From positions 1-64,000 of IMG/VR virus record IMGVR_UViG_2914436621_000001: 64,000 bases of DNA; one strand, given 5' to 3'. Below the pieces are notes generated by a model, which worked only from the letters and a program-made list of their open reading frames with translations, did not search any database and was not told the origin of the DNA. Made by a program: the position numbers and the translations under genes. The number at the start of each line of letters is the position of its first letter. The first letter of the stretch is position 1. The stretch is from a virus. Its lineage: Duplodnaviria; Caudoviricetes. Of this stretch, positions 4,051-64,000 are shown piece by piece.

Positions 4051-4077
4051 GGATAGGTGGACGCTCTGTTGTTCCCA

Positions 4078-4392
4078 CTAGCGCGGCATCCCCTTCATGT
4101 AGCCGTAAGGGTTGCTGGCAGGCCGATGCACAGTCACCGCCTTGCCGCTGGCAACCCCACCGCTGGTGATGCTCTCGCAATACATAAACGAACCGTCCGC
4201 ACCCTTCGAGCGATGCAACCCGGTCGAGGCTTCATAGCCCTGGTAGATGGCATTGAACTGGGTTTGGCGATCGCGCCGCTGCTCTTGCAGATTCGATCGC
4301 CTCATATATTGGCTTTGCTGCTGATTTGCCGCCAGGATGGCTATCTGTTTGGCTCGGTTCATATCGGGTTCATATCGGGTAGTAGTTGCCAA
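4078..4392 (-). CDS. Hypothetical tail-region protein
   Basis: 104-aa ORF; shares ITSGGVASGKAV..MPR motif with N-terminus of 4370-6238. Confidence 0.6.
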   Translation of the reverse strand: MATTTRYEPDMNRAKQIAILAANQQQSQYMRRSNLQEQRRDRQTQFNAIYQGYEASTGLHRSKGADGSFMYCESITSGGVASGKAVTVHRPASNPYGYMKGMPR

Positions 4393-34658: not shown

Positions 34659-35483
34659 TTGCCTCGATCGCTACAAACTTGGGCAAGGATGACAGCAATG
34701 GAACGGACACGCATGGCAACTGAGCAGGTTTGGTCTCGATATCGCAAAGTTGCAACCAGACGGGCGGAATTAACCACTCTGCGAAATAACATCGCGACGG
34801 CAAATGACAAGCTGGCGCTCAAAATCGCACACCGGATGGCCGCTCAGAGTGCGGAGCCGATTGACGATCTCATTCAACTGGCGAGAATTGGTCTGTTGAA
34901 GGCGGTTGAGAAATTCGATCCGACCAAGGGCGTGGCATTCAGCAGCTTTGCGGTGCCTTATATCCAGGGCGAGATCCTCCACTTCCAACGCGACCACTGG
35001 AGCCACGTCAAGGTACCGCGCCGCAGCCGCGAATTTTTTGCCAGGGTTAAGGCCACGCAGCGCAAGCTGGCTGCCAAAGGTCAAACGGTGGATGCTGAGA
35101 AAATTGCAATTTCTTTGTTGCTCAACGGGCGATATGCCACGCAGGAGGCGATCGCCGCTGCACGGGGGAAATGGCAACAGATTCAGGAAGAATGCGAGCG
35201 CAAGCCACTGCTGACGCTAGATGAGGTTCTGCATCATTCCGGTGCGGATGAGTTGGAGGATGAGTCAGAGGATGAGGCACTACGCAAAGAAGTGCGCCAA
35301 AACCTGGCTAAACTGCCCGATCGTCTGCGTCGCTGTATTGTGGAGCGCTATTTCGATGACCTCAGCGAAGAGCAAATCGCCAAACAGCAGAATGTGACGG
35401 TGGACGTGGTGCAGAGCTGGCTGAATGAAGGGTTGCAACGCCTGCGGATCGGGCATGATGGAGATCAGCAGCGCTTGGGTTAA
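34659..35483 (+). CDS. RNA polymerase sigma factor, SigB/F/G type
   Basis: DDLIQLARIGLLKAVEKFDP..G..FSSFAVPYIQGEILH..RD region 2; region 4 HTH. Confidence 0.92.
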   Translation: MPRSLQTWARMTAMERTRMATEQVWSRYRKVATRRAELTTLRNNIATANDKLALKIAHRMAAQSAEPIDDLIQLARIGLLKAVEKFDPTKGVAFSSFAVPYIQGEILHFQRDHWSHVKVPRRSREFFARVKATQRKLAAKGQTVDAEKIAISLLLNGRYATQEAIAAARGKWQQIQEECERKPLLTLDEVLHHSGADELEDESEDEALRKEVRQNLAKLPDRLRRCIVERYFDDLSEEQIAKQQNVTVDVVQSWLNEGLQRLRIGHDGDQQRLG

Positions 35484-40104: not shown

Positions 40105-40139
40105 AAACAAAAGCACCCTGCCGAGGGTGCTTTTGTTTT
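40105..40139. terminator. Bidirectional terminator
   Basis: AAACAAAAGCACCCT-GCCG-AGGGTGCTTTTGTTT between convergent units. Confidence 0.75.
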
Positions 40140-40158
40140 GCGGTGGTGGGGCGATCGC

Positions 40159-40350
40159 TCATCCGTTTGAAATCAGATGAGAAACAGTGTCTGAGGCAAG
40201 CTGCACTAAGGTTCTTGCTTGCAGAAGCTTGCCGTCACTGCTGCATTCATAGAGTCCGAGCTTTTCATTTTTGCTGGCCTCTGAAACGCCGAAAGGCTGA
40301 AATATCTTGTTAAATCCAGCTACCGATATGTTTGAGCCTTGCCAAGTCAT
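40159..40350 (-). CDS. Small hypothetical protein
   Basis: MTWQGSNISVAG... with GGAGG RBS. Confidence 0.5.
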   Translation of the reverse strand: MTWQGSNISVAGFNKIFQPFGVSEASKNEKLGLYECSSDGKLLQARTLVQLASDTVSHLISNG

Positions 40351-40360
40351 CCGTACCTCC

Positions 40361-40777
40361 TTACTTTTTGCTTTGCTGTGGTGGGGCGATCGCCGCCCAA
40401 TCAAGACATTGAGGCTGTGGCTTTTCCACAGGATGAACTGAGCAGGGATTAGCTAGATAGTCGATCGCCGCCACGCTGAAATACTTGCAGTTAAAGCATT
40501 CTGCACATTCCTCAATCTCTTCGCGATCGCTGTAATGGCGGATCGCCAGACAACCGCCTACCAGCACCCAGGTCAGGCTAAGTCCCGTTGCGGTAGCTGA
40601 GGTCTGAACCACTCCAATAATTTGACCTTCCCGATGGTCGCTGATAAAAGGGCTGGCAACAAACAGGGTACTGGTGGATAGCAAGGTTGCAGCCAAAGCA
40701 CTCAGAAAGGTTGAAGCAGCGGCGCAGCAGTTAGCGCCAATGAGCTTTTCTGCAATGGTTCTTTTGGGGTCGGTCAT
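40361..40777 (-). CDS. Membrane protein with C-terminal DUF6464-like Cys/His domain
   Basis: Two TM segments; CFNCKYF...CSVHP....C.DW. Confidence 0.6.
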   Translation of the reverse strand: MTDPKRTIAEKLIGANCCAAASTFLSALAATLLSTSTLFVASPFISDHREGQIIGVVQTSATATGLSLTWVLVGGCLAIRHYSDREEIEECAECFNCKYFSVAAIDYLANPCSVHPVEKPQPQCLDWAAIAPPQQSKK

Positions 40778-40795
40778 GAATCAGTCCTTATCGAT

Positions 40796-42388
40796 CTATC
40801 TGGTTTCTTCAACCTGAAATTTGGCGAGCAAGCTATCAATGTATTTAGAAATTTCCTGCCGCTTCCTGCCGCTGGTTACTCCCATGTGTTGCTCAATAAA
40901 TCTGGTTCGCCCCATGCCTTTGCTGAGCGTCAAAAACAATCCGAGAAAACTCCGCTCGCTCAGGCCAGCCCAATTTTGTCCCAATTCTTGAATCAACCCT
41001 AAAACGGGTTTGTCCACCAGTCCATGCGGGTTGTCCGGGTTTTGTCCAGCGCTTGTCCCGGTTTTGTCCGGGTTTTGTCCATCTCTGTCCGGTGTTTGTC
41101 TTGACCCATTTGAGCTGGTCAGTTCAGGGAATCGAGTTAACATCCAAACCACTGGATCTGGATGCCCATACTCATTAGTTTCGGTGAGAATCCATGATGG
41201 CAACTCCCATCGGTCTTCTCTACCGTTTCGATCGATCAGATATTTGCCAGTGGGCGATCGCTCACCCATTTCGTCTTCAGTGTGAACGGCAAAGATGCCA
41301 ACACGACCACTGCGCCAGGTCGCATCCATGCCTTTCAACCCATGAGCGCCGGAGGTGTCATTTTGGCTGATGCCGATGAAACCTATGCCGCTCTTTGGTC
41401 CTTTCATCAGCACAGCGGTGAGCAGCTTCTGCAAATCGATTTCGTATTGGCTAGCAGCGGCCAGCATTTCGTCAAAAATGACAGACTGATGCTTTAAAGA
41501 ATGTTTTGAGGCGGATTCAATAGCACGGGTCATCCGGTCAACACCCTGAGAGTAAGCTCGAAAGTTGCTGGCTACCTCGCTCCAGGCAATTCGTTTGGGG
41601 TAATCATCGTCGGTGCTAAAATAGCCAACCTGATGATCTAAGGCTAACCGGGCGATCGCCAGCATCAAGGCAGCGGTTGTTTTCCCGCTTTGGGACGCGC
41701 CATAAAACCAGACAAACGGATGGTGGATTAGCGACCCAAGCGGGAAACCGTCACGACCTAGCACCGTGAGCAGATCCACCATCCGCGCCCTGGGGTCAGG
41801 GTTGGATAAGTCAGGCTCCATTGAGCGCTGCTCATCGCTATCATCTGGCTCATCATTGGCAGGTAGGTCAATCGACCTTTCTTCTGACTCTGATCCAACG
41901 GCTTGATTGGTGAAGGCAGACGGAGTAAGCGTTGCAGGTTCAAGCAATTTATTTAATGACTCCTTCCGCTGAGGCTTAGGCTTCTCCTGACGCTGCCTCC
42001 AAAGGTTGAGCAACGCCTCTGCATCGGGCGATAGCCGCAACCCTTTCTTCTCCGCCCATATCAACTGCGCGATCGCAGTCTCGTCGCCATACTGTTCGCA
42101 ATACTCGCCTAGCGAATGACCTTCTAACTCATGAGCAACGCAGCCATACTGCTGGATGGCTGTCTGACTCTCGCTCATTTCTTTGTTCCGTCGCCAAGCA
42201 GTGTGGATGCCGATGATAGCAGGCGGCAAGAATGCGAAACCTGTTCCAGTAACTGCCGCGAGGGCAACCCCCGCAACAATGCCACTCACCCCAATCAATC
42301 CAGTGTGGGTGCCCTTAGCGGCTTTGAGGTAAGCATGCTCGATCCATTGTTCATCTGTCAGTTTTGCTGATTCCATAGAGAATTTCAT
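40796..42388 (-). CDS. Membrane-anchored FtsK/HerA-like P-loop ATPase
   Basis: N-terminal TM hairpin; GASQSGKT Walker A; VIFDE Walker B; IGISQ conserved Gln; small C-terminal helical domain. Confidence 0.75.
   Translation of the reverse strand: MKFSMESAKLTDEQWIEHAYLKAAKGTHTGLIGVSGIVAGVALAAVTGTGFAFLPPAIIGIHTAWRRNKEMSESQTAIQQYGCVAHELEGHSLGEYCEQYGDETAIAQLIWAEKKGLRLSPDAEALLNLWRQRQEKPKPQRKESLNKLLEPATLTPSAFTNQAVGSESEERSIDLPANDEPDDSDEQRSMEPDLSNPDPRARMVDLLTVLGRDGFPLGSLIHHPFVWFYGASQSGKTTAALMLAIARLALDHQVGYFSTDDDYPKRIAWSEVASNFRAYSQGVDRMTRAIESASKHSLKHQSVIFDEMLAAASQYEIDLQKLLTAVLMKGPKSGIGFIGISQNDTSGAHGLKGMDATWRSGRVGIFAVHTEDEMGERSPTGKYLIDRNGREDRWELPSWILTETNEYGHPDPVVWMLTRFPELTSSNGSRQTPDRDGQNPDKTGTSAGQNPDNPHGLVDKPVLGLIQELGQNWAGLSERSFLGLFLTLSKGMGRTRFIEQHMGVTSGRKRQEISKYIDSLLAKFQVEETR
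40977..41100. repeat. Helically phased direct repeats (minus-strand consensus GGACAAAACCC)
   Basis: TGTCC cores at 40977, 41011, 41032, 41043, 41054, 41065, 41076 and 41086, plus TGTC at 41097. Confidence 0.85.
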
Positions 42389-42401
42389 ACGTCAGCACCT
42401 T

Positions 42402-43145
42402 CTAGCGGTGAGCCTTGAGATGGGTGATTAGGTTGGACAAGCCGAACATCACTTTGACCAGGAACTCGACGCAGTACAGGCAGAAGCCGATCGCTGCCAC
42501 GTTACCCCAGTTGATTTGATTCCACTGCCCGGTCATCAGGACTAACCACGCTCTATCAAACCCACCTTCAATTGGCGGGTAAATGGTGCTAACAACGCAG
42601 AAGTCGAGAATGTACGCAAAGCAGGCGGCATTCCTGGCTGTTGCAACCGTTTGCAGTGGTAAGCGGTTGTAGACTTTTTTCAAGGATTGAAGCAACGGGT
42701 CTTCCCAGGGGCGAACGCTATATTTTCTGCCGGACTCAGCATCATTGATGATGCCTTGCATCAAAATTCGGTTGCGTTCAACAAAGACTGGAGCCGTCTC
42801 GCAAATCTGGATGAATAGCCAAAGAATTGCTCCCAAGAGCCAGAAGATGATGCTCAAAGGAATGCCAGCCAGCCAAGCGACTACTCCACTAGTCGGGACA
42901 ACTCCAGTCAGGCCGACGAGATACTCAACGGCTCTACTGTAGGGGAAGATGTTCAACCAGCAAAAGAATAGTGCAATGAGTGCGGCTGTCCAATATAGGA
43001 GACTGAAGATCCAGGTGTCTTTTAACGCGGAAAGCCATCGTCGGCCCTGCCATTTGCCGCTGCTGCTATCCGCTGGCTCTTGCCAGTTAGATTGCGGTGC
43101 CTGGTAGTCCTCTTCATGCCGTCTGGTTCTGGATTGATAGGCCAT
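42402..43145 (-). CDS. Multi-pass membrane protein
   Basis: About four hydrophobic segments; in operon with ATPase. Confidence 0.75.
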   Translation of the reverse strand: MAYQSRTRRHEEDYQAPQSNWQEPADSSSGKWQGRRWLSALKDTWIFSLLYWTAALIALFFCWLNIFPYSRAVEYLVGLTGVVPTSGVVAWLAGIPLSIIFWLLGAILWLFIQICETAPVFVERNRILMQGIINDAESGRKYSVRPWEDPLLQSLKKVYNRLPLQTVATARNAACFAYILDFCVVSTIYPPIEGGFDRAWLVLMTGQWNQINWGNVAAIGFCLYCVEFLVKVMFGLSNLITHLKAHR

Positions 43146-43148
43146 TAG

Positions 43149-43661
43149 TTAGTTCCTCACGGGGTTTGAGTAAGTGCCTTCTGCAAACTGGCGTTGCTCT
43201 GCTTCTCGAACGATCGCCTTGTTGCCTGTATAGGCAGGCAGGCTGATTTTGCTGTTGCCATCTAGGATTGCAGTGTTGCCGTTAGCGTCGCAGACCACCG
43301 TGCCAGGTGGCAGTGGTGAGCCATCGACCGGATCGACCACGCGTGCCCCAACGGCAACATTGGCGTATTGATTGGGAGTGTCTGCAAAGTAAATGAACAT
43401 ACAGCCTGCGACGTATCGCCCTTCGGCGATCGCGGCCTGCTGTTCAGCGAAAAGGGTGGAAGCTTCTGCCTCGGCGCTCAAAGCCGCATTGGCTTTGATT
43501 TGCTGCGCTCGAACTTCAGACGCTTTCATGTTTTCGAGAATGTTTTGATGGTTCATTGCTGCGATCGCTGCCGTGGCCACCAATGCGAGGGAAAGCATGG
43601 GATTTCGCTGCGCCCAGTTTTTACGGCTGGTATTGGACTGGAGTTCTTGGAATAAGCTCAT
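43149..43661 (-). CDS. Single-TM / exported protein
   Basis: N-terminal hydrophobic helix, coiled-coil, C-terminal domain with two Cys. Confidence 0.7.
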   Translation of the reverse strand: MSLFQELQSNTSRKNWAQRNPMLSLALVATAAIAAMNHQNILENMKASEVRAQQIKANAALSAEAEASTLFAEQQAAIAEGRYVAGCMFIYFADTPNQYANVAVGARVVDPVDGSPLPPGTVVCDANGNTAILDGNSKISLPAYTGNKAIVREAEQRQFAEGTYSNPVRN

Positions 43662-43996
43662 CAGGCGAACACTCCTTGCTGAACCTGAGCAATGAGGGCA
43701 GCGAGTAGATCAAGGAGGTCGCGTTCGGGCAGATCGAAGATATCGATTAAGGCTTCATCCAGGCCAACAGCCTTCAGTTCGTCCTCGACTACGTACTGGA
43801 GCGGGAATTCGACGTACTGTTCGGGCGACAGATATAATTCCAGTTCGTCTGTCGCTAGCACAGAACCGATCGCCCCGACCAGTGTGAGCTTGCAGCGTTT
43901 GGTCATCTTTTGGAAGGTGGAGCCAAACTCCTGGGTCAATCCTTCACAAATTTCTGTGTAGGTAGGGCTTTCTGGATAAGTAGCGTTTTCTGGCAT
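43661..43996 (-). CDS. Acidic hypothetical protein
   Basis: 111 aa; GAGG RBS; coupled to downstream gene. Confidence 0.65.
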   Translation of the reverse strand: MPENATYPESPTYTEICEGLTQEFGSTFQKMTKRCKLTLVGAIGSVLATDELELYLSPEQYVEFPLQYVVEDELKAVGLDEALIDIFDLPERDLLDLLAALIAQVQQGVFA

Positions 43997-44047
43997 GTTG
44001 GAATCCTCTTGGCTATATGGGCTGGATTGAATAGCTGGACCGGAATT

Positions 44048-44069
44048 CCAGTCCGGAATTCCGGACTGG
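44048..44069. repeat. Palindrome family B copy
   Basis: CCAGTCCGGAATTCCGGACTGG, preceded by overlapping partial copy GGACCGGAATTCC. Confidence 0.88.
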
Positions 44070-44319
44070 GTTAGCGACTGGAATAACGATTGAGCAAAGC
44101 CATGTAGTTGGCTTTAGTAATGCGCCGCCTGCCGCCATCGGGCAAAAGGGCGTAATAGATGCGATTCTTTCCGGTTTCTCCGTTGTTGGTTATTCCGCAG
44201 CATTCATTTGCTGCAACTCGTTTCAGTGCCATTGTTTTGTGAGCATAAAGGGCTGTTGAAGAGATGCCATGCGGTGAGGACGGAACCCACCAGCATGGCG
44301 AGGACGAGCGCTTTGCAGA

Positions 44320-44769
44320 TCAGGAACCCGTTAGATTCCGCTGGATTGGGATTCCGGGAAGCGCGAAAAAATCCCCAAACTCCACCTCAAATACCTGTGA
44401 ATCTGCGATTTGCTCTGGCTTTTCATACTGGCGATCGAGGTTTTCGATCTTTTCCACAGCAGCGGCAAAGATGCGAGCTTTGGTTGTGCGATGCAGCTCA
44501 ACCAACACGTCAGAGGCTTGCTCCACGTAGCGCTGATTTGCCTGAATTGCACCTGCCAGCTCTTGATTTAGTTCGGCAGTTTGCTGGTGAAATCGGTTGG
44601 CAGTAATACGCGTGTTGTCGGCATAGACACGAGCAATCTCTCCGGTTTCAACAGGCTGAAATGCTTTATCAGTCTGCTTTTGGCTAGGGTGAATTGGTCG
44701 CTTAATCTGCTGCTTTTGGTTGTTTAGAACAGCTTGCTCTTCGGGGGTTAAATTGCTGTGTTCAGTCAT
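44320..44769 (-). CDS. Coiled-coil protein
   Basis: Likely start MTEHSN overlapping upstream stop. Confidence 0.65.
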   Translation of the reverse strand: MTEHSNLTPEEQAVLNNQKQQIKRPIHPSQKQTDKAFQPVETGEIARVYADNTRITANRFHQQTAELNQELAGAIQANQRYVEQASDVLVELHRTTKARIFAAAVEKIENLDRQYEKPEQIADSQVFEVEFGDFFALPGIPIQRNLTGS

Positions 44770-45070
44770 TGGGGTACCTTTCAGGGTGTTGATTAAGGTC
44801 TTTAAGTAGCGCAGTTTTTGCTCGCTCAAGGGAGCGATCGCGCTTTAGGTGATTGGCAATAAAGAGGAACTTAGCGACATCGCGCTTGCCATATAGCGGC
44901 TTACGTTGCACCAGACAGAAGGGGAGCCACTCATAAAACTGGGAGACGCTTAACTCGCGATCAGCCCATATCAGTAGCTCTCGCCTAACGTCATCTCTGG
45001 TGTAGTCCTCTAGTAGTTGTGCTGTGGGCATTTCAGGCTCTCGGCTGAATGTCACCGGAATCTCAAGCAA
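44762..45070 (-). CDS. Putative DNA-binding protein (MerR/wHTH-like)
   Basis: YTRDDVRREL...LSVSQFYEWL...YGKRDVAKF pattern. Confidence 0.5.
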   Translation of the reverse strand: MLEIPVTFSREPEMPTAQLLEDYTRDDVRRELLIWADRELSVSQFYEWLPFCLVQRKPLYGKRDVAKFLFIANHLKRDRSLERAKTALLKDLNQHPERYPND

Positions 45071-45121
45071 TTCTGATCAGATTCGGGTGACATTCCGGAT
45101 ACATGCAAAATAGCACATTTT

Positions 45122-45180
45122 TAGTAGCTGTAAAGCTACTAGATAGTAGCTAGCTAAAGTTTTTAAGCTGAATAGTAGCC
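45122..45180. promoter_or_regulatory. TAGTAGC repeat operator between divergent operons
   Basis: TAGTAGCT-GTAA-AGCTACTA palindrome plus further TAGTAGC copies. Confidence 0.6.
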
Positions 45181-45229: not shown

Positions 45230-45631
45230 GTGAGCAAGCGCGTATTTTTAACCTTGCCTGACGGCGTAGCTGCCGACTTGAAGCGATGGGCTGATAGCGA
45301 AAGCAATAATTCTGCTGGATTGGCAGGTTTCCTGGTAGAGCAAGCGGTGCGCCAGGCGAAGGAGGAGGGCAAGATTCCTCCACCTCCTGGTGGGTCACCA
45401 CTACCGGAATACAAATCCCTATCTCAGCTAGTTATGCACAACCTCAGCAAGCTAGCCGAGTCAGGCAAGCTACCACAAAAGCGGCTGAAGGAGCTGATGG
45501 ACGGCGATCGCCCCACAGAAGTCGAAGTTTTGCGGATTGCTCTGTTACTGGAGTTGACCGAAGAGTACGTTTCAGACCTGCCAATCAATGGAGGAGTGAA
45601 TGGCGACAAAACAAAAACTGGAACTAAATGA
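45230..45631 (+). CDS. Ribbon-helix-helix (CopG/Arc-like) regulator with C-terminal HTH-like domain
   Basis: KRVFLTLPDGVAADLKRWAD....AGLAGFLVEQAV. Confidence 0.75.
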   Translation: MSKRVFLTLPDGVAADLKRWADSESNNSAGLAGFLVEQAVRQAKEEGKIPPPPGGSPLPEYKSLSQLVMHNLSKLAESGKLPQKRLKELMDGDRPTEVEVLRIALLLELTEEYVSDLPINGGVNGDKTKTGTK

Positions 45632-49199: not shown

Positions 49200-49532
49200 A
49201 TGAACGCCATCGACCTGCTTGGCACCTGGGGCAAACTCGAACCTGACCAATATAAAGCCTGGGTTGAGCGTTCTCAGGGGATGGACGATCGCGCCGCCCA
49301 AGCCGAACTACTCCAAACCCTGCTGGAGGCGATCGCCTCCAGCGAAAGTGCCAGAGTGCGCCTTGAAAATTCGTCCCAAGGGTGGCACGCCACCCTTGGG
49401 AAACGGCTTCCAGATTCAAACAGCTTCCAGTTTTTAGTATTTGCCAAAGATCCTGATCCTGCCCTGGCACTGCTAACGGCCTGGGTTGAGTTCCTGGAGA
49501 AAGCAGCGATTGCCTCGGAGGTAGCCCAATGA
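49200..49532 (+). CDS. Hypothetical protein
   Basis: GGAGG RBS; ATGA overlap with rep gene. Confidence 0.7.
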   Translation: MNAIDLLGTWGKLEPDQYKAWVERSQGMDDRAAQAELLQTLLEAIASSESARVRLENSSQGWHATLGKRLPDSNSFQFLVFAKDPDPALALLTAWVEFLEKAAIASEVAQ

Positions 49533-52500
49533 CCTCTACCACTCGTTTCACTACTGAACTCGATCGCATTGACCTTCAAGCCATCAAACCGGATCACATC
49601 ACCGTCAAGCACTGGAATGAGTGGTGTGTAGAAAGCGCTGTCGATCCAGACATCACACGGCTCAACATCCGCAGTATCAGCGATTTAGAAGTTGACCCCG
49701 TCACCCGTGAGGTGTCTACACCAATCGCCGATCTGCTCAATTGGCGATATACCCGCTTTGGGCAACGTGCCAAAACAAATTTAGAGGGCTGGCTCTGCCA
49801 GGGAGTTGACCCTCTAAATAACTGCCAGCCGATGGATTGGGTCAGGTTCAAACCCAACCTCCCATTGCTGGACGAAAACGGCAAACCTAAAAGATATCTT
49901 GCCCCCAAAAACGTGTCGAGCCGCGCTACGTTCTTGCGGGTGAGCTGGAAAGCTGGCCTTAAAATCGCGAGGAGCTTAGGACATGAAGAAGTCTACGTCA
50001 AACGGATTTTGCAAGCGCACCAGGGCAGCGAAGCAGAAACGCAGAGCCGAGAAACGCATCCAGCAATTGAAGAGATCGGGAATTTCAGCGACGCTGTGTT
50101 ACATTCCGGAGCTGGACGAGTGGCATCCTCAGTGCTACCTGCGGGATCTGCCCTCCAGCATGAAGACCCAGATTTTTGGGAATGGGTTTTTACAAACGGA
50201 CTCCCAATCACCCTGACTGAAGGCGAAAAGAAGGCTGGCTGTTTGCTTACGCAAGGGGTGGTCGCGATCGCCCTCCCTGGTATCACAATGGGCGCTCGCA
50301 GTAAAGATGAGCATGGCAACCCATGCCTGCCCCGACTGATTCCAGAGTTAGAGCATTTCGCCACCAAAGACCGAGAATGGCTTATCTGCTTCGACTATGA
50401 GACCAAGGCAAAAACCGCATGGGCGGTTCGACGTGAAACAGAAAAGCTGTGCCGCTTAGCCCAACTGGCAGGCTGCACAGCCAAAGTTGTGCCCCTACCC
50501 GGCCCCGAAAAAGGCGTTGATGATTTCATCGTGGCACAGGGCGCAGAGGCGTTTAGATCCTGTTATGAAGCGGCTCTACCGCACGAAGTCTGGCAGATTG
50601 AGCATTACACCAAGCTCAGCCATACTCCCACCCTGGAACTCAATCAACGATACCTGGGGGCAATGTGCCTGCTGAACAACCCCAAACTGCTAGCCATTAA
50701 GTCACCAAAGGGCACTGGCAAGACAGAAAGTTTCGTTGAGTTAGTTTCTGAAGCAGTTCAAACCGGGCAGCGGGTTCTACTGCTCACCCACCGCACTCAA
50801 CTAGGACAGGCCATCTGCGATCGCATTGGAATCGATTTCGTATCGGAAATTCGCGTTTCCGAGACCCGTGGACTGCTCGGCTATGGACTCTGCCTGGACT
50901 CCCTGCATCCAGGCTCTCAGGCGCGGTTTGACGCTGAACACTGGAATGATGCCATCGTCATCATTGACGAATGTGAGCAGGTCTTCTGGCATCTGTTCTC
51001 CGCTGAAACTGAAATCAGCAAACACCGCATTGCCGTCTTACGCCAACTCCGCCAACTGCTCATCAACACACTGGAGAGCGATCGCGGAATGGTCATCCTA
51101 TCCGATGCTGACCTATCCGATCTGAGTATCGAGTTTGTTCAGAAACATACCGAAATCAGGACTGCCCCCTACTTAATCGTCAACCATTGGAGACCCGGAT
51201 CTGAGCAAAGCTGGGAGATCTACCACTACAGCCAGACCGAACCAACCGAATGGTACAACTCCCTGGTTGGTGCGATCGCTCAGGGTGGACACCACTTTGT
51301 CTGCACCCACTCCCAAAGAACGAAGAGCCGCTGGAGTACCTGCACAATGGAGTCTCACCTCCGCAGGCGGTTTCCAGACAAGCGAATCCTCCGGATTGAT
51401 AGCAAGAGCATCGGCGACAAAACACACCCAGCCTACGGTTGCATTAGCCGACTGAATGAAATCGTAGGCAACTACGACATAATTCTCGCCTCTCCCAGTA
51501 TCGAAACCGGGGTCAGCGTTGATATTAAGGGGCACTTCACAGCAGTCTGGGGCTGCTTTCAGGGCTGCACCCCAGAAAATACCGTAAGACAATCCCTGGC
51601 ACGGGTAAGAGAACCCGTTGAGCGGCACATCTGGATCGCCAAACACGGACTTGGCAAAGTGGGCAGTGGTGCCACCTCGCCACAAGCGCTGCTGAAATCT
51701 CAGCAAAAGATGGCGCAAGCCAGTTTAAAGCTGGTAGATCTCGATTTTGACTCAACAACAGGCGAATTCTTCAGCCACCATGCCGCCCTCAACACTTGGG
51801 CAAAAATGGCCGCCCGAATCAACATTGGTATGATTCGCTACCGAGAAGTGGTGCTCTACGGACTTCGGGGGGAGGGACACCAAATCTTTGAATTCGGCTG
51901 GAAGGTCGATCGCTCCGAGCTAAAGGAAGAGATCACAGCTGTTCGAGATGAGGAGTATTTAAAGGAGCGGGAGGCCATCACTACTGCCGATGAGATCACC
52001 CCCAGCCAATACGAAACCCTTAAATCTCAGAAAAATAAAAGAATGGAGGAGTGGCATAAAGAGCGAAAACATAAGCTGCAACAGCGCTACGGGTCAGAAG
52101 TCACACCAGAACTAATCGAGAAGGACGACAAGGGCTGGCACCCCCAGATCCGGCTCCACTACTATCTGGTGTATGGCCGCCAATTCCTCAAAGACCGCGA
52201 TCGGGCTGTTGTGGATGCGGCTGTGCAAAGCCATGAAATCTGGCTACCGTCCCTAAATCACGCTCAACTTGGCGTTCAAATTGGGGCATTGGAGTTTTTG
52301 GGGATTCCACAACTACTAGACCCAAATCGGGAATTCCGCTGCACCGATGCTGACTTAATCGAATTTGCCAAAAAAGCGAAGGCACACGCCTACGACCTGA
52401 AAACCGTTCTCAATGTCACGATTTCTCAAAAAGATACGCCGATTGCGATCGTGCAAACACTGTTGGGCAAGATTGGGCAGCGGCTTACCTATGACCGGAG

Positions 52501-52651
52501 GGAGGGGTCAAGGGGCAATCGCGTCCGGGTCTATCTGTATCGTCCAGCCAGAGACGGCAGGGACGAGGTTTACTTGCGCTGGATAGAGCGTGACCAGATT
52601 AAAAGTCAATCAGCGGTGTCCAGCCCCGGTATAGATCAAATAACAGCGTAG
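49529..52651 (+). CDS. CyRepA1-family replication protein (DUF3854 TOPRIM-like primase plus helicase)
   Basis: TEGEKKAG, ICFD, KGVDDFI TOPRIM motifs; KSPKGTGKT Walker A; IIDECEQ Walker B; SPSIETGVS; QSLARVR. Confidence 0.9.
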   Translation: MTSTTRFTTELDRIDLQAIKPDHITVKHWNEWCVESAVDPDITRLNIRSISDLEVDPVTREVSTPIADLLNWRYTRFGQRAKTNLEGWLCQGVDPLNNCQPMDWVRFKPNLPLLDENGKPKRYLAPKNVSSRATFLRVSWKAGLKIARSLGHEEVYVKRILQAHQGSEAETQSRETHPAIEEIGNFSDAVLHSGAGRVASSVLPAGSALQHEDPDFWEWVFTNGLPITLTEGEKKAGCLLTQGVVAIALPGITMGARSKDEHGNPCLPRLIPELEHFATKDREWLICFDYETKAKTAWAVRRETEKLCRLAQLAGCTAKVVPLPGPEKGVDDFIVAQGAEAFRSCYEAALPHEVWQIEHYTKLSHTPTLELNQRYLGAMCLLNNPKLLAIKSPKGTGKTESFVELVSEAVQTGQRVLLLTHRTQLGQAICDRIGIDFVSEIRVSETRGLLGYGLCLDSLHPGSQARFDAEHWNDAIVIIDECEQVFWHLFSAETEISKHRIAVLRQLRQLLINTLESDRGMVILSDADLSDLSIEFVQKHTEIRTAPYLIVNHWRPGSEQSWEIYHYSQTEPTEWYNSLVGAIAQGGHHFVCTHSQRTKSRWSTCTMESHLRRRFPDKRILRIDSKSIGDKTHPAYGCISRLNEIVGNYDIILASPSIETGVSVDIKGHFTAVWGCFQGCTPENTVRQSLARVREPVERHIWIAKHGLGKVGSGATSPQALLKSQQKMAQASLKLVDLDFDSTTGEFFSHHAALNTWAKMAARINIGMIRYREVVLYGLRGEGHQIFEFGWKVDRSELKEEITAVRDEEYLKEREAITTADEITPSQYETLKSQKNKRMEEWHKERKHKLQQRYGSEVTPELIEKDDKGWHPQIRLHYYLVYGRQFLKDRDRAVVDAAVQSHEIWLPSLNHAQLGVQIGALEFLGIPQLLDPNREFRCTDADLIEFAKKAKAHAYDLKTVLNVTISQKDTPIAIVQTLLGKIGQRLTYDRREGSRGNRVRVYLYRPARDGRDEVYLRWIERDQIKSQSAVSSPGIDQITA

Positions 52652-58040: not shown

Positions 58041-58192
58041 AGGGTGTTTTAAGCCCTTCACATCTGTCGCTATTCGGGGGTGTGGGGCGCTAGTCGAGCT
58101 AATTGAGCGGATCGCTCCGCCGCTCTAGGCCGGGTAAGCTTACAACAAAATTTGATGGTTGCTCTGCACATATTTGTCAGCGATCGCATTAA

Positions 58193-58714
58193 TCAGTTCC
58201 TCCCACCTAATTTCATCGTCGTGAAAGAGGAGAAGCTGTTGAGCGAGATCGGCGGCAATGAATCGAGCGTAATGATTGGGATGCTTAAGGGTCTGAATCC
58301 CAACAAGATCGCAGAGATAAGCAAACCGAACGCGAACTCGAATGGTCTTTGTGAGGGGATCGGGAATCCTTGCCACCTCAACCAATGCAAGAATATGCGT
58401 CGGTGTCGGATGGCGACGAGCGGAAAGTGCGACATCCCAAGATGCTCTAACACTTCCCGGCTCAAGGGATCGGCGCTCTCCAGCTCCGTTAGGTGATGCC
58501 GTCCATCTAACCTGATCGCAGGTAAGGAGTAGGTCATATTGCCCTTGATAGGCTGGGATGAATCGGTAAGTGGCCGCAGCTCCCGCCACCGATCGCTTGA
58601 GTCGATGGAGAACTCCGAGATTGGATTGCCAGCTTCGTTCGACGGAGACAGTTTCTCGTTGCGATCGTCTGGCGAGTCGCTTAATCCATCGGAGTAGTCG
58701 CGTGAGCCAGTCAT
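58193..58714 (-). CDS. Hypothetical protein with C-terminal hydrophobic segment
   Basis: ATGA-coupled to upstream gene; an alternative frame 58140-58820 is also open. Confidence 0.45.
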   Translation of the reverse strand: MTGSRDYSDGLSDSPDDRNEKLSPSNEAGNPISEFSIDSSDRWRELRPLTDSSQPIKGNMTYSLPAIRLDGRHHLTELESADPLSREVLEHLGMSHFPLVAIRHRRIFLHWLRWQGFPIPSQRPFEFAFGLLISAILLGFRPLSIPIITLDSLPPISLNSFSSFTTMKLGGRN

Positions 58715-58968
58715 TGTTGTGTTGTGCCACTATCGTCGGGCATGGTTGGGCTTGAGATGGCACGATCGACCGGGGCGATCGTCTGTGCAATTTTTTCATC
58801 CAATGAGCGGGTTGGAGCAAGCCACGCGCCCGTCATAACCGTCAGGCCAAGCGAGATTTGAGCCGACGGGTCGTAGTCGGAAACCAGATTGGATTTGTGC
58901 AGGGCTTGCGCGATGATCAGCAATCCTGCTACAACCCCAAAAGACTCCACTGAGAGAAATTTACGCAT
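58711..58968 (-). CDS. Small two-TM membrane protein (holin-like)
   Basis: MRKFLSVESFGVVAGLLIIAQAL...ISLGLTVMTGAWL. Confidence 0.5.
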   Translation of the reverse strand: MRKFLSVESFGVVAGLLIIAQALHKSNLVSDYDPSAQISLGLTVMTGAWLAPTRSLDEKIAQTIAPVDRAISSPTMPDDSGTTQQ

Positions 58969-58972
58969 TGTT

Positions 58973-59491
58973 CTAGGGGATAGGTTGGAGATCAAAATCG
59001 TCTGGATTGAAGCCGTGGATTTCGAGGCGCGATCGCAGCCATTCCAGCTCTTCGGCTGTGAAGTCTCCAATGCCCGCAATGCCTCGCAATCCATCACGAA
59101 CATCAGCAATAGCAGTCGCGAAATCGCTCAGATGATGGGTGGTCGTCAGGGTGCCATAGAGCAAAGTGAACGCTTTATTCGCCTTTAAAGTTCGCCCCGC
59201 TCCTTCGTAGACCTTTGCCCAAGGCATCGATCGTCGCAGATCCTCAACTAGGCCATCCCAATTCTGTAAAGGCATAGGAACCGGAAGTGGAGGCAATTCC
59301 CAACTGCTCTCATTCCAGTAGTGTAGTGAGCTGGGTTGAGGCGGTTTTGCAACAACTGCCGTGCCGTCAAAATAAGCTTCTGCGGGTTCTAGCTCTTCAC
59401 CTTCTGCTAAAGCAAATCCCACAGGCAGCACCTCAGGCTTGGTGTCCATCGGCGGACTTACCACCTGATTATCAGCAATGAAATACCACAT
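58973..59491 (-). CDS. Tail fibre assembly-like protein
   Basis: KPPQPSSLHYWNESSWEL motif; follows fibre genes. Confidence 0.6.
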   Translation of the reverse strand: MWYFIADNQVVSPPMDTKPEVLPVGFALAEGEELEPAEAYFDGTAVVAKPPQPSSLHYWNESSWELPPLPVPMPLQNWDGLVEDLRRSMPWAKVYEGAGRTLKANKAFTLLYGTLTTTHHLSDFATAIADVRDGLRGIAGIGDFTAEELEWLRSRLEIHGFNPDDFDLQPIP

Positions 59492-59492
59492 A

Positions 59493-60827
59493 TCAGCCCA
59501 CCGGTAAGAGAGTTCGATTTGTTAGCAGGCCAGCGACTCCAGCTCCTTGGTGGCTGCCACCTGCCCCACCAAAGCCACCACCACCACCGCCTGCATAGCC
59601 TGTTCCCGTGCTTGTGCCAGCAGTCCCACCTGTCAGCAGAATTGTTCCTGATGGAGAATTGTTGGGCGACAGAAAAGCGCCATGCCCACCACCGCCACCG
59701 CCACCACCAAAACTGCCAGAACTGCCAGTTCCGCCAACAGCGTTGCTGCCATTGCCACCGCGCACGTCAACGGTTGAGCCTGCTTGCAGCGTGATCGAGA
59801 TGAGCGATTTTACAAGCACCAACCCACCAGAACCACCTCCTGATCCGCCAAGGGTTCCAGATGACGTGCCTAGCGTTCCAACAACGGCATTGCCGCCTCT
59901 AGCGAGAATCGAGCCGGTTGATCCCAGGATGAATGCTCCAGCGCAATCAAAAATCAATGTTCCGCCCGCATCTCCCCCCTTCGAACCAGAACCGCCTGTT
60001 CCGACGGCAGTTAAGAAGATCGTGCCGTTTGCGCCGCTTGATCCAATTGGATTGAGGAAGTAGTTGTAGGCGCTACCACCAAACACCTCGCCACCCAAAC
60101 CGCTGCCTAAGCCAGGGTTGGCAACAATAATTGTGTTGGCGTAGGCGAGTGTTCTTGCCCCGGCTCCTGCTAGGGATGTCGTAACATTTATCGTGCCATT
60201 GATAGTGCAGGTGCCACTGATATGGATCTTTGCGCCAGCAGAGATGGTCAGGGTGGCAGCAGATTCAATCGTGAAGTTGCGAAAGTAATACTCGCCCTGG
60301 TTAAACGTGGCGGTTGTGGTGAGCAAATAATCGCCTTGATCCCCACTCCCCCCAAAAACTCGGATTGCTTCTGCTCGGGGTAGTACCGGCTGTGCATCTC
60401 TCGGAAAAGCAGGGACGATCGCAGTAACAACGCCTGCCACCGTCGTCACTTGCGCTAGTGGTACAGACGCGACAGGACGTAGGATGGCTGTACTGACAAC
60501 GCCAGTTGTGGAAATGAAGACAAAAGAGGTGCTGTTGTCAGGCAGTGCTAAAGCCCCTGGAGCAATGGTGGTGATCGCCCCGTTAGGCAGCGTGATCGCA
60601 CCTCCGGTATGGTTGATGCTTAAACCGATACCAGCCGTGACCTTGAGCACGTCCCTGAACGTGCGCCATTCCTGCTTGATCTGCCCTGCCGCATTGCTCA
60701 GTTCATCGTCGGTAAGTCGAGGGTAATGCCCATCGATATCTTGGTCGTCGAAGACAAGGTTTTGGATGGCATTAAACCAAGCTGCATAAGCCCTAGAGCC
60801 ATTGGCGTAGACTGTTTTCGCCATCAA
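59493..60827 (-). CDS. Glycine-rich tail fibre-like protein
   Basis: GGSGGGSGG/GGGGGGG repeats. Confidence 0.75.
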   Translation of the reverse strand: MMAKTVYANGSRAYAAWFNAIQNLVFDDQDIDGHYPRLTDDELSNAAGQIKQEWRTFRDVLKVTAGIGLSINHTGGAITLPNGAITTIAPGALALPDNSTSFVFISTTGVVSTAILRPVASVPLAQVTTVAGVVTAIVPAFPRDAQPVLPRAEAIRVFGGSGDQGDYLLTTTATFNQGEYYFRNFTIESAATLTISAGAKIHISGTCTINGTINVTTSLAGAGARTLAYANTIIVANPGLGSGLGGEVFGGSAYNYFLNPIGSSGANGTIFLTAVGTGGSGSKGGDAGGTLIFDCAGAFILGSTGSILARGGNAVVGTLGTSSGTLGGSGGGSGGLVLVKSLISITLQAGSTVDVRGGNGSNAVGGTGSSGSFGGGGGGGGHGAFLSPNNSPSGTILLTGGTAGTSTGTGYAGGGGGGFGGAGGSHQGAGVAGLLTNRTLLPVG

Positions 60828-62200
60828 TCAATTCTCCATAACTCAACTTCGGTAAAGATTTCGGAAATAGTTGCTTCCCCGCACGCTCCTCCCAAACCGC
60901 TGCCTGCGAAGGCATTAAGGCAGTAATGGCGGATCTCAAAGTCGGTATTTGCAGCGATCGTAAAAGTGCCTTGCAGCAAGGAAAGGGAGGCTACTACATC
61001 AGTCGAGTTAGAGTAGCTTGGCTTGCCATCGATCGTTCGCGTCGAACTAGTTGCATTCCACAGAAAAATTCGATGAGCGTTAACCGCAATTCCGGGAGCA
61101 GACGCAAAAATGCGGTACGTGCCAGCTCTTAAGGTGAAGCGGTTTGAACTCAGGTTGGTGACATCGCCTGAGTTGGTAACAATCGAGTTCAGGGTTCGAG
61201 TCTGAATTCCTGCAAATGCTGACCCACCGTTTGTTCCTGATGCCTTACTATCCACAATTCGGGAATAGCGATGAACGCTATCTTTCACAAACTTGCAGTT
61301 CGCAACCCTCCCTCCATTCGTGGCGATCGCCACGTTCTGATCCTGATTGGGAGTAGTCGGGTTGCCCGTCAAAGCAGCATTGTTCAGCCGACTGACGATT
61401 TCTGCAACTGTAAATGCTGTTGTTGCCAGTCGGGTTGTGTTATTCCCAACGGTTTGTGTTGGAGCAGTCGGATTCCCTGTTAATGCCGCATTGGCTAGGG
61501 GTGCTAGCGTCACCAGAAAATCTCGCACCGCATTCGCACTGGGTGCCCACAGCGCTCCATCCCACCCGGCTGAATTGAAGGCCGTATCCTGCCCCCCGGT
61601 GCCCCCTGAATCACCTTTCGCGCCAGATTGCATCCAGTTTGAGTTAGCGATCGCGGGTGTTTGGCCTGCGGCTGGAGTGGCGCTAATCCAAATCCAGCTC
61701 GATCCCGCATAAGAAACGCAGTCGTCAAGCTGATAGTGAGTTGCAGCGTTATATTCCCCCAGGTACCTCGGCCCACCTCGTAATGCTGCGGCGTATTGCT
61801 GATTTGTGGTCAACAGCCGCGCCAACCGAGCGATCGCCGTATCCAGGGAATCGGTGCTAACGCCAGTGGGAATCAGCTCTGAGAAGTCAACCGATGCCAA
61901 ATTCGGGACAAAAGCGTGAAAGTCAATCAGCGGATCGTTGTCTAATCCGGTTTCAGTTGCAGCATTTGTTGCCCAAAACTGGAAATGATAGGTGACTCGC
62001 GCCGTCTCACTTTCGTGCAGGTTGATGTTGAGGTTGCTAGCAGTGGCAGCGATTGCAAACTTGTACAGGCGCGGCAAGACAGTGGTGTGAGGCGTTGTGG
62101 ACGAATTCACAACTGCGCTATCAGCCTGCACCCAAAGTTGACCCGCTAGAAGCTGCCCTCCAGAATCCTGAAGAGTGCCTTTAATATTGCAAAGGGACAT
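60824..62200 (-). CDS. Tail fibre protein
   Basis: Two ALTGNPT(A/T)P repeats, TRLATTAF, Y...D.V.Y.GSSW module. Confidence 0.8.
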   Translation of the reverse strand: MSLCNIKGTLQDSGGQLLAGQLWVQADSAVVNSSTTPHTTVLPRLYKFAIAATASNLNINLHESETARVTYHFQFWATNAATETGLDNDPLIDFHAFVPNLASVDFSELIPTGVSTDSLDTAIARLARLLTTNQQYAAALRGGPRYLGEYNAATHYQLDDCVSYAGSSWIWISATPAAGQTPAIANSNWMQSGAKGDSGGTGGQDTAFNSAGWDGALWAPSANAVRDFLVTLAPLANAALTGNPTAPTQTVGNNTTRLATTAFTVAEIVSRLNNAALTGNPTTPNQDQNVAIATNGGRVANCKFVKDSVHRYSRIVDSKASGTNGGSAFAGIQTRTLNSIVTNSGDVTNLSSNRFTLRAGTYRIFASAPGIAVNAHRIFLWNATSSTRTIDGKPSYSNSTDVVASLSLLQGTFTIAANTDFEIRHYCLNAFAGSGLGGACGEATISEIFTEVELWRID

Positions 62201-62203
62201 TTG

Positions 62204-62830
62204 TTAAGCCTCAAAAACCGGATCACCGCAGGCGCTGAAACCCACGTAAAAAGCGTCGTAACAGACCAGCGAATCGCAAAACGCAGGGGAATAAAGCCGA
62301 TTCAGCTTCTCTGCCAGCTTGAACTCGGAACTCTCCCGCAGATATTTCAGTGGCAGCAGGAGATAATAAACCCATTCCGGGCTGCCCAACGTGCCTGGTA
62401 GTTCAGAAATGCCAACCAGGAATGAAGCTCCCAGCCAAACTTCATGATCGATATCAAATAGCTCAAGCAGGTAGGCTAAGACAACCTCGCTGCCTTTGTT
62501 TGCCCAGATATCAACGCCGTCGAAGGCGTTGGCAATGAGCGATCGCTTCACCTCGTCTGACCACGCCTTATCCCAGTACTCGCCAGTGAACCCGCAGAGC
62601 AGTCTCAGGAAATCCAGCCATGCCGGATCGCAAGTCGCGGGATTGAGCTGTCGGGGCAGATCGCCAACGGTAGTTTTGGTTGCAATTAGGAGTTCATCAA
62701 AGTAGACCGTTAACCAGTCTGCGATCGGTTCTCCTTCTTCTTTGCGGTAACCCTCATTGACTCCCGGCAGGCGGCTATAGATGGGGCGACCGGATTGCCA
62801 CGCTTCATAGGTGCTAGACATAGTCCTCAC
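62204..62830 (-). CDS. Phage tail protein I (P2 gpI-like baseplate wedge)
   Basis: LNPATCDPAWLDFL...W...KRSLI.....KGS motif; follows baseplate J. Confidence 0.8.
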   Translation of the reverse strand: MRTMSSTYEAWQSGRPIYSRLPGVNEGYRKEEGEPIADWLTVYFDELLIATKTTVGDLPRQLNPATCDPAWLDFLRLLCGFTGEYWDKAWSDEVKRSLIANAFDGVDIWANKGSEVVLAYLLELFDIDHEVWLGASFLVGISELPGTLGSPEWVYYLLLPLKYLRESSEFKLAEKLNRLYSPAFCDSLVCYDAFYVGFSACGDPVFEA

Positions 62831-63980: not shown

Positions 63981-64000
63981 GTTCTAGGGGAAGCTAATTG

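Follow-up and report, generated by a model that had tools for sequence, protein, structure and literature searches.

A membrane-anchored ATPase with a direct-repeat array inside its gene on a cyanobacterial prophage: a candidate DNA-handling module analogous to TraB/clt/Spd

Introduction

The virus record IMGVR_UViG_2914436621_000001 (Duplodnaviria; Caudoviricetes) contains an operon of eight minus-strand genes that runs from 45070 to 40159, from a promoter/operator region to a hairpin terminator. We refer to the 64,000 nucleotides (nt) that were analyzed, positions 1 to 64,000 of the record, as the window, and to the genes as g1 to g8. One of them, g6, encodes a membrane-anchored P-loop ATPase. 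What does this operon do for the element that carries it? A sequence-only reading of the window had proposed a DNA-spreading module of the Streptomyces TraB/Spd type. In those systems, TraB binds a cis-acting transfer locus (clt) of direct 8-bp repeats via its C terminus, and its partner SpdB2 is a pore-forming protein with four transmembrane segments that has homologs on actinophages, as given in the available text of PMC4447253. The literature that we covered yielded no description of this ATPase family or of a TraB-like system in cyanobacteria in the available text of the papers. Neither is described in the available text of the 2025 plasmid-mobility review PMC12282955.

Our preferred answer, held tentatively, is that g4, g5, and g6, together with an array of GGACAA repeats inside the g6 gene, form a membrane-embedded, sequence-directed DNA-handling machine that is most likely analogous to TraB/clt/Spd. 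The likeness is an analogy, in the sense that the module would work like TraB, and not membership in the FtsK/TraB family.

A phased direct-repeat array lies inside the ATPase gene

The 1593-nt g6 gene contains seven GGACAA boxes, and all of them are within 105 nt (gene nt 1308 to 1412). They are spaced by 11, 11, 11, 11, 21, and 34 nt, and the 11-nt period is about one helical turn. The boxes are read in frames 0, 2, 1, 0, 2, 2, and 0, and they encode a disordered linker region (residues 437 to 473). Because they are read in all three frames, the constraint is on the DNA and not on the peptide. The word GGACAAAAC has three exact matches in the 64-kb window, all three inside this array. We suggest that the array, which the sequence-only reading did not mention, is a candidate cis site similar to clt or to a centromere.

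We scanned this and other ATPase loci for such arrays. For the first 11 loci, the threshold was at least three exact 8-mers within 150 nt, at which shuffled sequences gave 0 to 0.04 clusters per region. For eight further plasmid loci, it was at least four exact 7-mers within 160 nt. Clear arrays were found in 6 of the first 11 loci, the window among them, and in 5 of the 8 further ones, that is, in 11 of 19 in total. In L002, L006, L004, L046, and L162, the array has an element-specific word and is located within the last third of the ATPase gene or shortly past its stop codon. The words are concentrated there: GGTTCA in L002 (10 of 11 gene copies in the array), CCGAAAA in L006 (6 of 6 copies), ACCCGACAG in L004 (12 of 13 matches of 20.7 kb), CAMGGCAG in L046 (7 of 7 exact matches of 24.8 kb, within 293 nt past the stop), and a 13-mer in L162 (5 of 5 matches of 22.6 kb). 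The five further plasmid loci with an array carry CGATACC, 180 to 370 nt before the stop; the other three have none. CGATACC is common to five of the six plasmids with one shared C-terminal domain. These plasmids are close kin, so the shared word does not count as independent evidence. An apparent array in L003 was rejected as a coding coincidence, because its word, TGGATGCT, is part of the conserved core, where it codes for the peptide WML.

L163 (6804 to 6895), L004 (5935 to 6030), and L006 (7046 to 7101) have a second cluster of short direct repeats (CATGAAAC, TTTGACTCA, and ATGGAACG), immediately upstream of the gene that opens the operon. Such a cluster could serve as an operator or be similar to parC, and it is separate from the array that marks the 3' end of the ATPase gene.

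The ATPase is predicted to have a RecA-fold motor core

The g6 protein starts with a hydrophobic hairpin (residues 30 to 61), which is the predicted membrane anchor; most homologs also have N-terminal hydrophobic segments. A helical and acidic disordered linker leads to the core (190 to 425), and a second disordered linker (426 to 462) leads to a variable, helical C-terminal domain (463 to 528). The three motifs named in the sequence-only reading are present: GASQSGKT, the Walker A motif, at 230 to 237; VIFDE, the Walker B motif, at 303 to 307; and ISQ at 340 to 342. Residues G235, K236, D306, and E307 are invariant in all 49 family members, and S341 and Q342 are invariant in the 12 close ones. 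No operon protein, g6 included, had a significant match in Pfam, PHROGs, NCBIfam, or PADLOC. PDB sequence searches with g6, two family profiles, and the C-terminal 76 amino acids (aa) of g6 returned matches of P-loop length or nothing. A core-profile search of the genome that contains the window found no paralog, and the next-best matches were weak (E of 6.5e-5 and above).

A core-only model built from 61 sequences had a predicted local distance difference test score (pLDDT) of 96.1 and a predicted TM-score (pTM) of 0.93. The top Foldseek match of this model was EccC (4nh0; E of 2.7e-6, TM-score 0.53), and several EssC/EccC domains came next. TM-scores were 0.52 to 0.56 against the FtsK motor (2ius/6t8b), the highest listed, 0.51 against TcpA (6o1w_B), and 0.42 to 0.48 against RecA, RadA, KaiC, and FlaH. 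The ESM Atlas gave HerA/DUF87 (0.90) and FtsK_SpoIIIE (0.88 to 0.89) as leads, all flagged as under the bar. Judged by the core model, g6 is an ASCE (additional strand, catalytic E)/RecA-fold ATPase from a family not yet described, and its closest structural likeness is to the FtsK/EccC/TcpA pumps. By the profile of the FtsK_SpoIIIE family itself, g6 is not a member. Canonical FtsK is sparse in cyanobacteria: it was above the cutoff in 11 of 41 genomes, and the genome of the window has none.

Like FtsK and SpoIIIE, g6 has an N-terminal membrane domain, a long linker, and a predicted RecA-fold motor. The C-terminal DNA-reading domain of FtsK/SpoIIIE recognizes 8-nt words, the FtsK orienting polar sequences (KOPS) or the SpoIIIE recognition sequences (SRS). 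However, neither PF01580 nor the gamma-domain family matches g6. The words at g6-type genes are clustered in one array of the element and are not spread and polarized over a chromosome, and the gene is on mobile elements, unlike canonical FtsK. The FtsK-like coupling protein TcpA of pCW3 is similar in size and also has two N-terminal transmembrane helices and one FtsK-like ATPase domain. TcpA and the type IV coupling proteins (T4CPs) differ in their setting, since the contig that carries g6 has no relaxase, VirB4, or other partner of the Tcp or type IV secretion system (T4SS) kind.

The EccC match raises the alternative that the operon serves protein export or another membrane process. In this scenario, g6 would be an EccC/EssC-like ATPase, g4 and g5 would be parts of a channel, a small acidic protein of the g3 type would be the cargo, and the repeats would be incidental. 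A small acidic protein is indeed encoded just upstream of the core genes in both the window and L014. However, g3 is not conserved. Type VII EccC/EssC proteins have tandem FtsK-like domains and work with EccB/D/E or EssA/B and WXG100 proteins, whereas g6 has a single ATPase domain, and Pfam finds no other secretion component in the operon. Repeats that are phased by 11 nt and read in three frames, with different words at the same position in other elements, are also hard to call incidental. We consider export the least probable of the readings discussed here.

Profile-profile comparison gave a divided result. We ran hhalign against small reference alignments built from cyanobacterial genomes. 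The g6 family scored 90.3% with RadA (169 columns), 80.1% with FtsK (90 columns), 64.8% with a second RadA-like set, 32% with AAA_25, 27% with HerA, 18% with cyanobacterial TrwB-type T4CPs (27 columns), 4% with RecA, and 1% with DnaB. In controls with the same small alignments, true relatives scored 34 to 97% (FtsK-HerA, 51; FtsK-T4CP, 69; DnaB-RadA, 97), and cross-superfamily pairs scored 0.5 to 14%. The g6 family is therefore unusual in scoring with both the FtsK and the RadA camps. The T4CP score sets g6 apart from VirD4/TrwB. The RadA alignment covers Walker A, a YxTxDxD strand (YvSxEES in RadA), Walker B, the sensor strand, and the region of the KNRFG hairpin. Two of these RadA motifs are changed in g6, which has YxTxDxD in the strand and EDxxGxxxPSGxY in place of KNRFG.

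On these grounds g6 could be a replication-linked helicase, that is, a membrane-tethered hexamer of the RadA/DnaB/AAA_25 type at an iteron-like array that serves as an origin or as a replisome attachment site. RadA is the best profile-profile match, AAA_25 matches 2 of the 12 close homologs, and the module adjoins a replication (Rep) gene. However, the elements already encode a large primase-helicase. The core model is nearer to FtsK, EccC, and TcpA than to RadA or RecA. g6 also lacks the KNRFG motif, which is not itself conserved in the family, and the zinc finger and Lon-like domain of RadA. Unlike RecA-type proteins, it is membrane anchored and has DE, not D-S/T, in Walker B. A helicase would also leave the obligatory polytopic partners unexplained. 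We regard this reading as highly improbable.

Three of the eight genes form a conserved core

The ATPase is rare. It had 12 relatives at an E of ≤1e-3 in a collection of 5.8 billion proteins, and those that carry names are cyanobacterial. A profile found 108 representatives at 50% identity among 1.84 billion proteins. Among 401 cyanobacterial genomes, 5 had a match at an E of ≤1e-5, only 2 of them strongly. A scan of metagenome contigs gave 97 pattern matches, of which none was confirmed, and a tblastn search of 50,697 phage records with g6 and a plasmid-type ATPase gave no match. The BFVD search returned what was overall a mixture of families, among them a 712-aa Nodularia phage protein of similar structure.

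Only g4, g5, and g6 recur among the fetched loci; g1, g2, g3, g7, and g8 have no homolog there. All three core genes are present in L006 and L014, and g5 and g6 are present in L002, where the contig is cut. The order of a bitopic protein, a protein with four transmembrane segments, and the ATPase is seen in the window, L006, L014, L002 (contig cut), L004, L045, L046, L162, and L163. L006 lies within a viral record of 70.8 kb that has direct terminal repeats and a terminase of its own and is rated 100% complete. This record is therefore a second complete tailed phage that carries the g4-g5-g6 triad. Therefore, of the module of seven proteins in the sequence-only reading, a core of three genes is conserved (three of the eight in the operon), and the other genes are variable. 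The expected conservation in cyanobacterial plasmids and prophages holds for the triad on phages; the plasmids carry a distant subtype, and five genes are not conserved.

A homolog search with g4 found one protein besides g4 itself, and an ESM Atlas search with g5 gave no informative neighbor. The sizes of g5 and g4 suggested a stator of the MotA or ExbB-ExbD type. We rejected this candidate, because Pfam gave no match, the gene order is reversed, and the g4 helix has no Asp by eye. In L003, the gene upstream of the ATPase gene (2595 to 4184) encodes 529 aa, with three to four hydrophobic segments in the C-terminal part and, by eye, a retropepsin-like DTG motif near the N terminus. This protein may represent the polytopic partner in a fused form.

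The carrier is a tailed prophage with a plasmid-type replication gene

The window corresponds to bases 3 to 64002 of contig C148 (167,253 bp) of a 7.3-Mb cyanobacterial genome. A virion module lies on the minus strand (contig bases 225 to 32286) and includes a terminase large subunit (PF04466; 7e-39), a tape measure protein (2670 aa; PHROG E of 9e-18), and a major tail protein (PHROG match; 1.5e-6). Beyond it follow a tyrosine integrase, a DNA methylase, a sigma factor, the ATPase operon, a ribbon-helix-helix (RHH) regulator, and a 1040-aa DUF3854 protein. By these matches, the carrier of the operon is a tailed, siphovirus-like prophage, in agreement with the earlier view that a cyanophage carries it. 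The prophage has, in addition, a replication gene of the plasmid type. In tblastn searches, the DUF3854 protein fell among proteins that are annotated as "plasmid replication protein, CyRepA1 family" and come from 254 plasmids; the best identity, 44.5%, was to a Nostoc plasmid. CyRepA replication proteins are covered in the available text of PMC10079941. The gene is divergent from the ATPase operon. A CyRepA1 gene in a tailed prophage hints either at the lifestyle of a phage-plasmid or at the capture of a plasmid backbone.

The profile families that we ran for relaxases, VirB4, and T4CPs had no match on C148, as the sequence-only reading had stated for the window. PF03135 and PF03389 matched nowhere in the genome. 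PF03432, PF08751, and PF10412 matched only contigs C38, C53, C117, and C121, and PF10412 (TrwB_AAD_bind) matched C38 and C53 only. With the T4CP score of 18%, the ATPase of the window does not group with VirD4/TrwB, and its contig has no T4SS gene.

C148 contains two prophage-like elements in tandem, one at window positions 1 to 57804 and the other at contig bases 58142 to 125545, with its beginning at window positions 58140 to 64000. In both, the virion module is on the minus strand; both encode a XerC-like integrase (57% identical), they have several early genes in common, and both end with an integrase-like gene (364 and 367 aa; 50% identical). The ATPase operon is present only in the first element. 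The corresponding slot of the sister element holds unrelated genes, including DUF5131, a nuclease, and a DnaJ-domain protein.

An operon in such a variable accessory slot may instead act in exclusion or defense. The membrane ATPase and its partners would block or expel the DNA of competitors, and the repeats would mark self. The exchange of genes in the slot, the rarity of the module among genomes, and the combination of membrane proteins with an ATPase on mobile elements are consistent with this idea. However, all eight proteins had E values of ≥0.013 against the PADLOC models, so no known antiphage defense system was recognized. Among the loci examined, the module is on phages, on plasmids, and on contigs with mobile-element genes, and on small plasmids it is a backbone gene next to Rep. 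Copies on several plasmids of one strain are unexpected for a defense system, and defense systems are not known to have element-specific arrays within the gene or behind it. We consider defense improbable.

A plasmid subtype occurs in Nostocales

With g6 as the query, six plasmid records matched at about 26% identity. With a plasmid-type ATPase as the query, 70 plasmid records matched, all from Nostocales: Nostoc (37), Tolypothrix (17), Microchaete (5), Calothrix (4), Aulosira (3), Trichormus (2), Scytonema (1), and Fischerella (1). Several carrier plasmids are often present in a single strain; for example, at least six records are from Tolypothrix PCC 7601. Mobility typing with MOB-suite classified 41 of the 70 plasmids as mobilizable, 16 as nonmobilizable, and 13 as conjugative. 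CyRepA1-type plasmids are also common among unicellular genera (Synechococcus, 24; Acaryochloris, 21; Synechocystis, 8; Geminocystis, 7) and are found in nonheterocystous filamentous genera as well (Planktothrix, 11; Leptolyngbya, 10; Pseudanabaena, 8), and none of the ATPase matches came from these genera. Therefore, the plasmid subtype is confined to Nostocales. This restriction fits the idea of filamentous hosts, but it is confounded with phylogeny, and we do not count it as enrichment.

In the plasmid operons, a protein of 130 to 143 aa with an N-terminal transmembrane segment and a protein of 233 to 258 aa with four transmembrane segments precede the ATPase. Upstream of this triad are small genes and a 339- to 394-aa protein in which the phosphate-1, phosphate-2, and adenosine motifs of actin/ParM were recognized by eye. 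These ParM-like proteins are related to each other across L162, L045, L046, and L004, and Pfam gave no match for 10 plasmid-operon proteins, the ParM-like ones included. They may belong to an unrecognized ParM-like clade on cyanobacterial plasmids. The operon adjoins, and is divergent from, a large primase-helicase gene (PrimPol plus DUF3987 in L162, D5_N in L163). L004 combines an ATPase of the window type (51% identity) with a plasmid-type protein with four transmembrane segments, and this mixture suggests that the partner proteins are interchangeable.

These plasmids raise the most serious alternative, a membrane-tethered partition or positioning system. Here g6 would bind the array as a centromere and hold or move the replicon for inheritance. 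On the plasmids, it would work with the ParM-like actin whose gene opens the same operon, and in the phage it would serve an extrachromosomal state driven by CyRepA1. The plasmid operons resemble ParMRC systems in that a ParM-like gene comes first, small proteins are encoded as well, and repeat clusters lie upstream. The module lies beside a Rep gene in the window, L162, and L163, and the Rep types differ (DUF3854, PrimPol plus DUF3987, and D5_N, respectively). There is one copy per plasmid and several such plasmids per strain, a pattern typical of replicon-specific maintenance. An array that adjoins the gene of its binding protein is a classical centromere layout, too.

However, the operon in the window has no ParM-like gene, and the ParM-like proteins of the plasmids are not recognized by Pfam. 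The ATPase does not belong to the ParA, ParM, or TubZ type, and we know of no partition system that has a membrane-anchored ATPase of the RecA/FtsK fold with polytopic partners, which we count against partition. The prophage also appears to be integrated, in tandem with its sister element. In addition, the separate upstream repeat clusters of L163, L004, and L006 could be the ParM centromere, which would leave the downstream array with another function. We consider partition rather unlikely, and still well ahead of defense.

A TraB/clt/Spd-like DNA pump is the preferred reading

We favor a DNA pump because of the combination of a membrane anchor, a pump-like motor, a variable C-terminal domain, a phased and element-specific array, bitopic and four-transmembrane-segment partners, mobile carriers, and the absence of relaxase and T4SS genes from the contig. 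The same features are found in Streptomyces TraB/clt/Spd systems, such as that of pSVH1 described in the available text of Thoma et al. (2015; PMC4447253). There, too, a membrane-anchored motor ATPase has a separate C-terminal domain, short direct repeats specific to the element lie beside or inside the 3' end of the ATPase gene, and the operon encodes small membrane proteins, one of which has four transmembrane segments. The likeness of g5 to SpdB2 is confined to this architecture. Shared as well are a carrier without relaxase or T4SS (here, contig C148), multicellular filamentous hosts, and a precedent for Spd proteins on phages.

There are also differences from TraB. The g6 protein has no detectable FtsK_SpoIIIE membership, and its conserved core starts about 35 residues before Walker A, so nothing in it corresponds to the FtsK alpha domain. 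The words of the arrays measure 6 to 13 nt, in contrast to the direct 8-bp repeats of clt, and in the phage-type genes they are inside the coding region. The host is a diderm cyanobacterium, and the plasmid relatives often also carry relaxases.

We propose the following mechanism. The N-terminal hairpin, which is evident as a hydrophobic segment, would anchor g6 in the cytoplasmic membrane in a topology that we infer. The RecA-fold core, in which Walker A, Walker B, and the sensor are intact, would oligomerize and hydrolyze ATP. The variable C-terminal domain would dock on the repeat array that its own gene carries at the 3' end. The motor, together with g5 and g4, would then move or hold the double-stranded DNA (dsDNA) of the element at the membrane. 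In the most likely form of this last step, the dsDNA would be pumped across the septal membranes into the neighboring cell, as with TraB/clt/Spd. The products of g1 to g3, g7, and g8 would be variable accessories.

Several observations weigh against this reading. PF01580 (FtsK_SpoIIIE) had no match to g6 at an E of ≤1 in the Pfam scan, none among the 49 family members at an E of ≤0.01, and none in the whole genome at an E of ≤1e-3. AAA_25 matched two close homologs (4.3e-7), and not g6 itself. The hhalign alignment with FtsK spans only Walker A to Walker B, and RadA is slightly favored over FtsK. A first, full-length model of g6 was poor (pLDDT of 56.5) and ranked RecA first. All TM-scores are near 0.5, which means no more than a shared RecA fold. 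The C-terminal domain has four helices (463 to 528) at a pLDDT of about 57 and no Pfam or PDB sequence match; the C termini of several homologs look winged-helix-like by eye. The partner proteins of the phage and plasmid types are not significantly related in hhalign (11% and 2.9%). No array was found in 8 of the 19 loci (L003, L005, L014, which is weak, L045, L163, L166, L167, and L171), and counts in a looser repeat scan of L003, L005, L045, and L163 were not above those of shuffles. The plasmid subtype also occurs on plasmids with relaxases, some of them with a T4SS. The module is therefore not simply a replacement for classical conjugation. Finally, its place in one operon with a ParM-like gene on plasmids points to segregation.

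The proposal of a TraB/Spd-like module thus stands in part. A clt-like array, an anchor, a motor, and membrane partners are all found, and the seven-gene module and the FtsK family membership are not. For the ATPase alone, a RecA-fold motor with EccC, FtsK, and TcpA as best structural matches was upheld, and FtsK_SpoIIIE membership by Pfam was not. The most specific version of the idea would be a relaxase-independent, TraB/clt-like dsDNA pump whose ATPase lies outside FtsK_SpoIIIE, which is common to tailed cyanophages and Nostocales plasmids, and which passes the replicating genome of a phage or plasmid through the septa of a filament, from one cell to the next, without virions or a T4SS. We regard that version as possible, though doubtful. 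Cell-to-cell spread itself is purely our inference from the analogy.

If this version is true, "spreading" would have been invented a second time, independently, in multicellular bacteria. The combination of a motor, docking repeats, and membrane partners, known from Streptomyces, would have arisen or persisted in another multicellular phylum, a distant one, with a different ATPase as its scaffold. Cyanobacterial filaments would also have a route of gene flow and phage propagation that mobility typing does not see; the 16 carrier plasmids called nonmobilizable by MOB-suite are relevant in this respect. Even as a partition system, the module would be a new kind of maintenance machine and a backbone part of many Nostocales plasmids. 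The DNA pump reading lends itself directly to testing, since its components (the array, the C-terminal domain, and the three genes) are small and well delimited and Anabaena/Nostoc and Leptolyngbya can be manipulated genetically.

Operon layout and neighboring features

The coordinates of the operon and its surroundings are collected in Table 1. The seven genes listed in the sequence-only reading are all present on the minus strand, and the descriptions given there of an acidic protein (g3), a protein with about four transmembrane segments (g5, with four to five hydrophobic segments), and a Cys/His protein with two transmembrane segments (g7) agree with our analysis. For g4, described as a single-transmembrane protein, the hydrophobic stretch is clear in the L006 and L014 homologs and below the Kyte-Doolittle cutoff in g4 itself. 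Its layout is a hydrophobic helix at the N terminus, then a helical stretch, and finally a small domain at the C terminus that has the motif VVCDxxGxT..ID. The eighth gene, g8, was absent from the earlier list.

Table 1. Features of the ATPase operon and related loci (window positions unless a locus is named)
Feature	Position	Strand	Basis
Promoter/operator region	45047..45152	-	Promoter-like site 45134->45107 and two palindromes
g1, 102 aa, not conserved	44762..45070	-	No family match, no homolog in pooled loci
g2, 169 aa, not conserved by sequence	44320..44829	-	No homolog in pooled loci
g2-g3 gap	44048..44232	-	Doubtful 53-aa open reading frame (ORF) 44071-44232, then perfect palindrome CCAGTCCGGAATTCCGGACTGG 44048-44069
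g3, 111 aa, acidic, pI 4.05, not conserved by sequence	43661..43996	-	Composition
g4, 170 aa, bitopic, core member 1	43149..43661	-	Homologs in L006, L014, P0118
g5, 247 aa, polytopic, core member 2	42402..43145	-	Homologs in L006, L002, L014; directly upstream of ATPase gene
g6, 530 aa, predicted ATPase, core member 3	40796..42388	-	Walker motifs, fold model, homologs
Direct-repeat array inside g6	40976..41080	-	Seven GGACAA boxes
g7, 138 aa, two hydrophobic segments, 8 Cys, 3 His, not conserved	40361..40777	-	Composition
g8, 63 aa from ATG 40350	40159..40350	-	GGAGG 5 nt upstream of start
Hairpin terminator, perfect 15-bp stem	40105..40138	-	Ends operon
CyRepA1-family plasmid replication protein (DUF3854 Toprim-like domain and helicase)	49529..52651	+	1040 aa, DUF3854 5.7e-43
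ParM-like first gene of plasmid-type operons	L004 6118-7209; L162 14116-15135; L163 6966-8150; L046 7507-8535		Motifs by eye

The promoter/operator region is common to the operon and the divergent RHH gene (45230 to 45631). The promoter-like site reads TTTACA-16-TATTTT with TG ahead of the second hexamer. It is a consensus match only, and the number of such sites in the region is not above that of shuffles. One palindrome (45047 to 45095) has 17-nt arms that are 94% complementary, and the second is at 45111 to 45152.

The position of g2 matches that of a family of 186- to 208-aa proteins upstream in L003, L006, and L014, which by eye have an N-terminal helix-turn-helix followed by a coiled coil. 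At the position equivalent to g3, L014 has a 68-aa acidic ORF. The 22-nt palindrome in the 323-nt gap between g2 and g3 is not followed by a T-run and could be an RNA structure or a protein-binding site.

The start of g8 is most likely the ATG at 40350, judging from the GGAGG ahead of it. Because a 28-nt direct repeat flanks g8 on both sides (40131 to 40158 and 40366 to 40393; 93% identical; ending in the HIP1 octamer GCGATCGC), g8 looks like a cassette inserted between g7 and the terminator.

Two features of the prophage lie outside the operon. The tape measure gene (10340 to 18352) is very long, and its 2670-aa product implies an unusually long tail. The prophage also encodes its own sigma-70-family factor, with regions 2 and 4, at 34659 to 35483.

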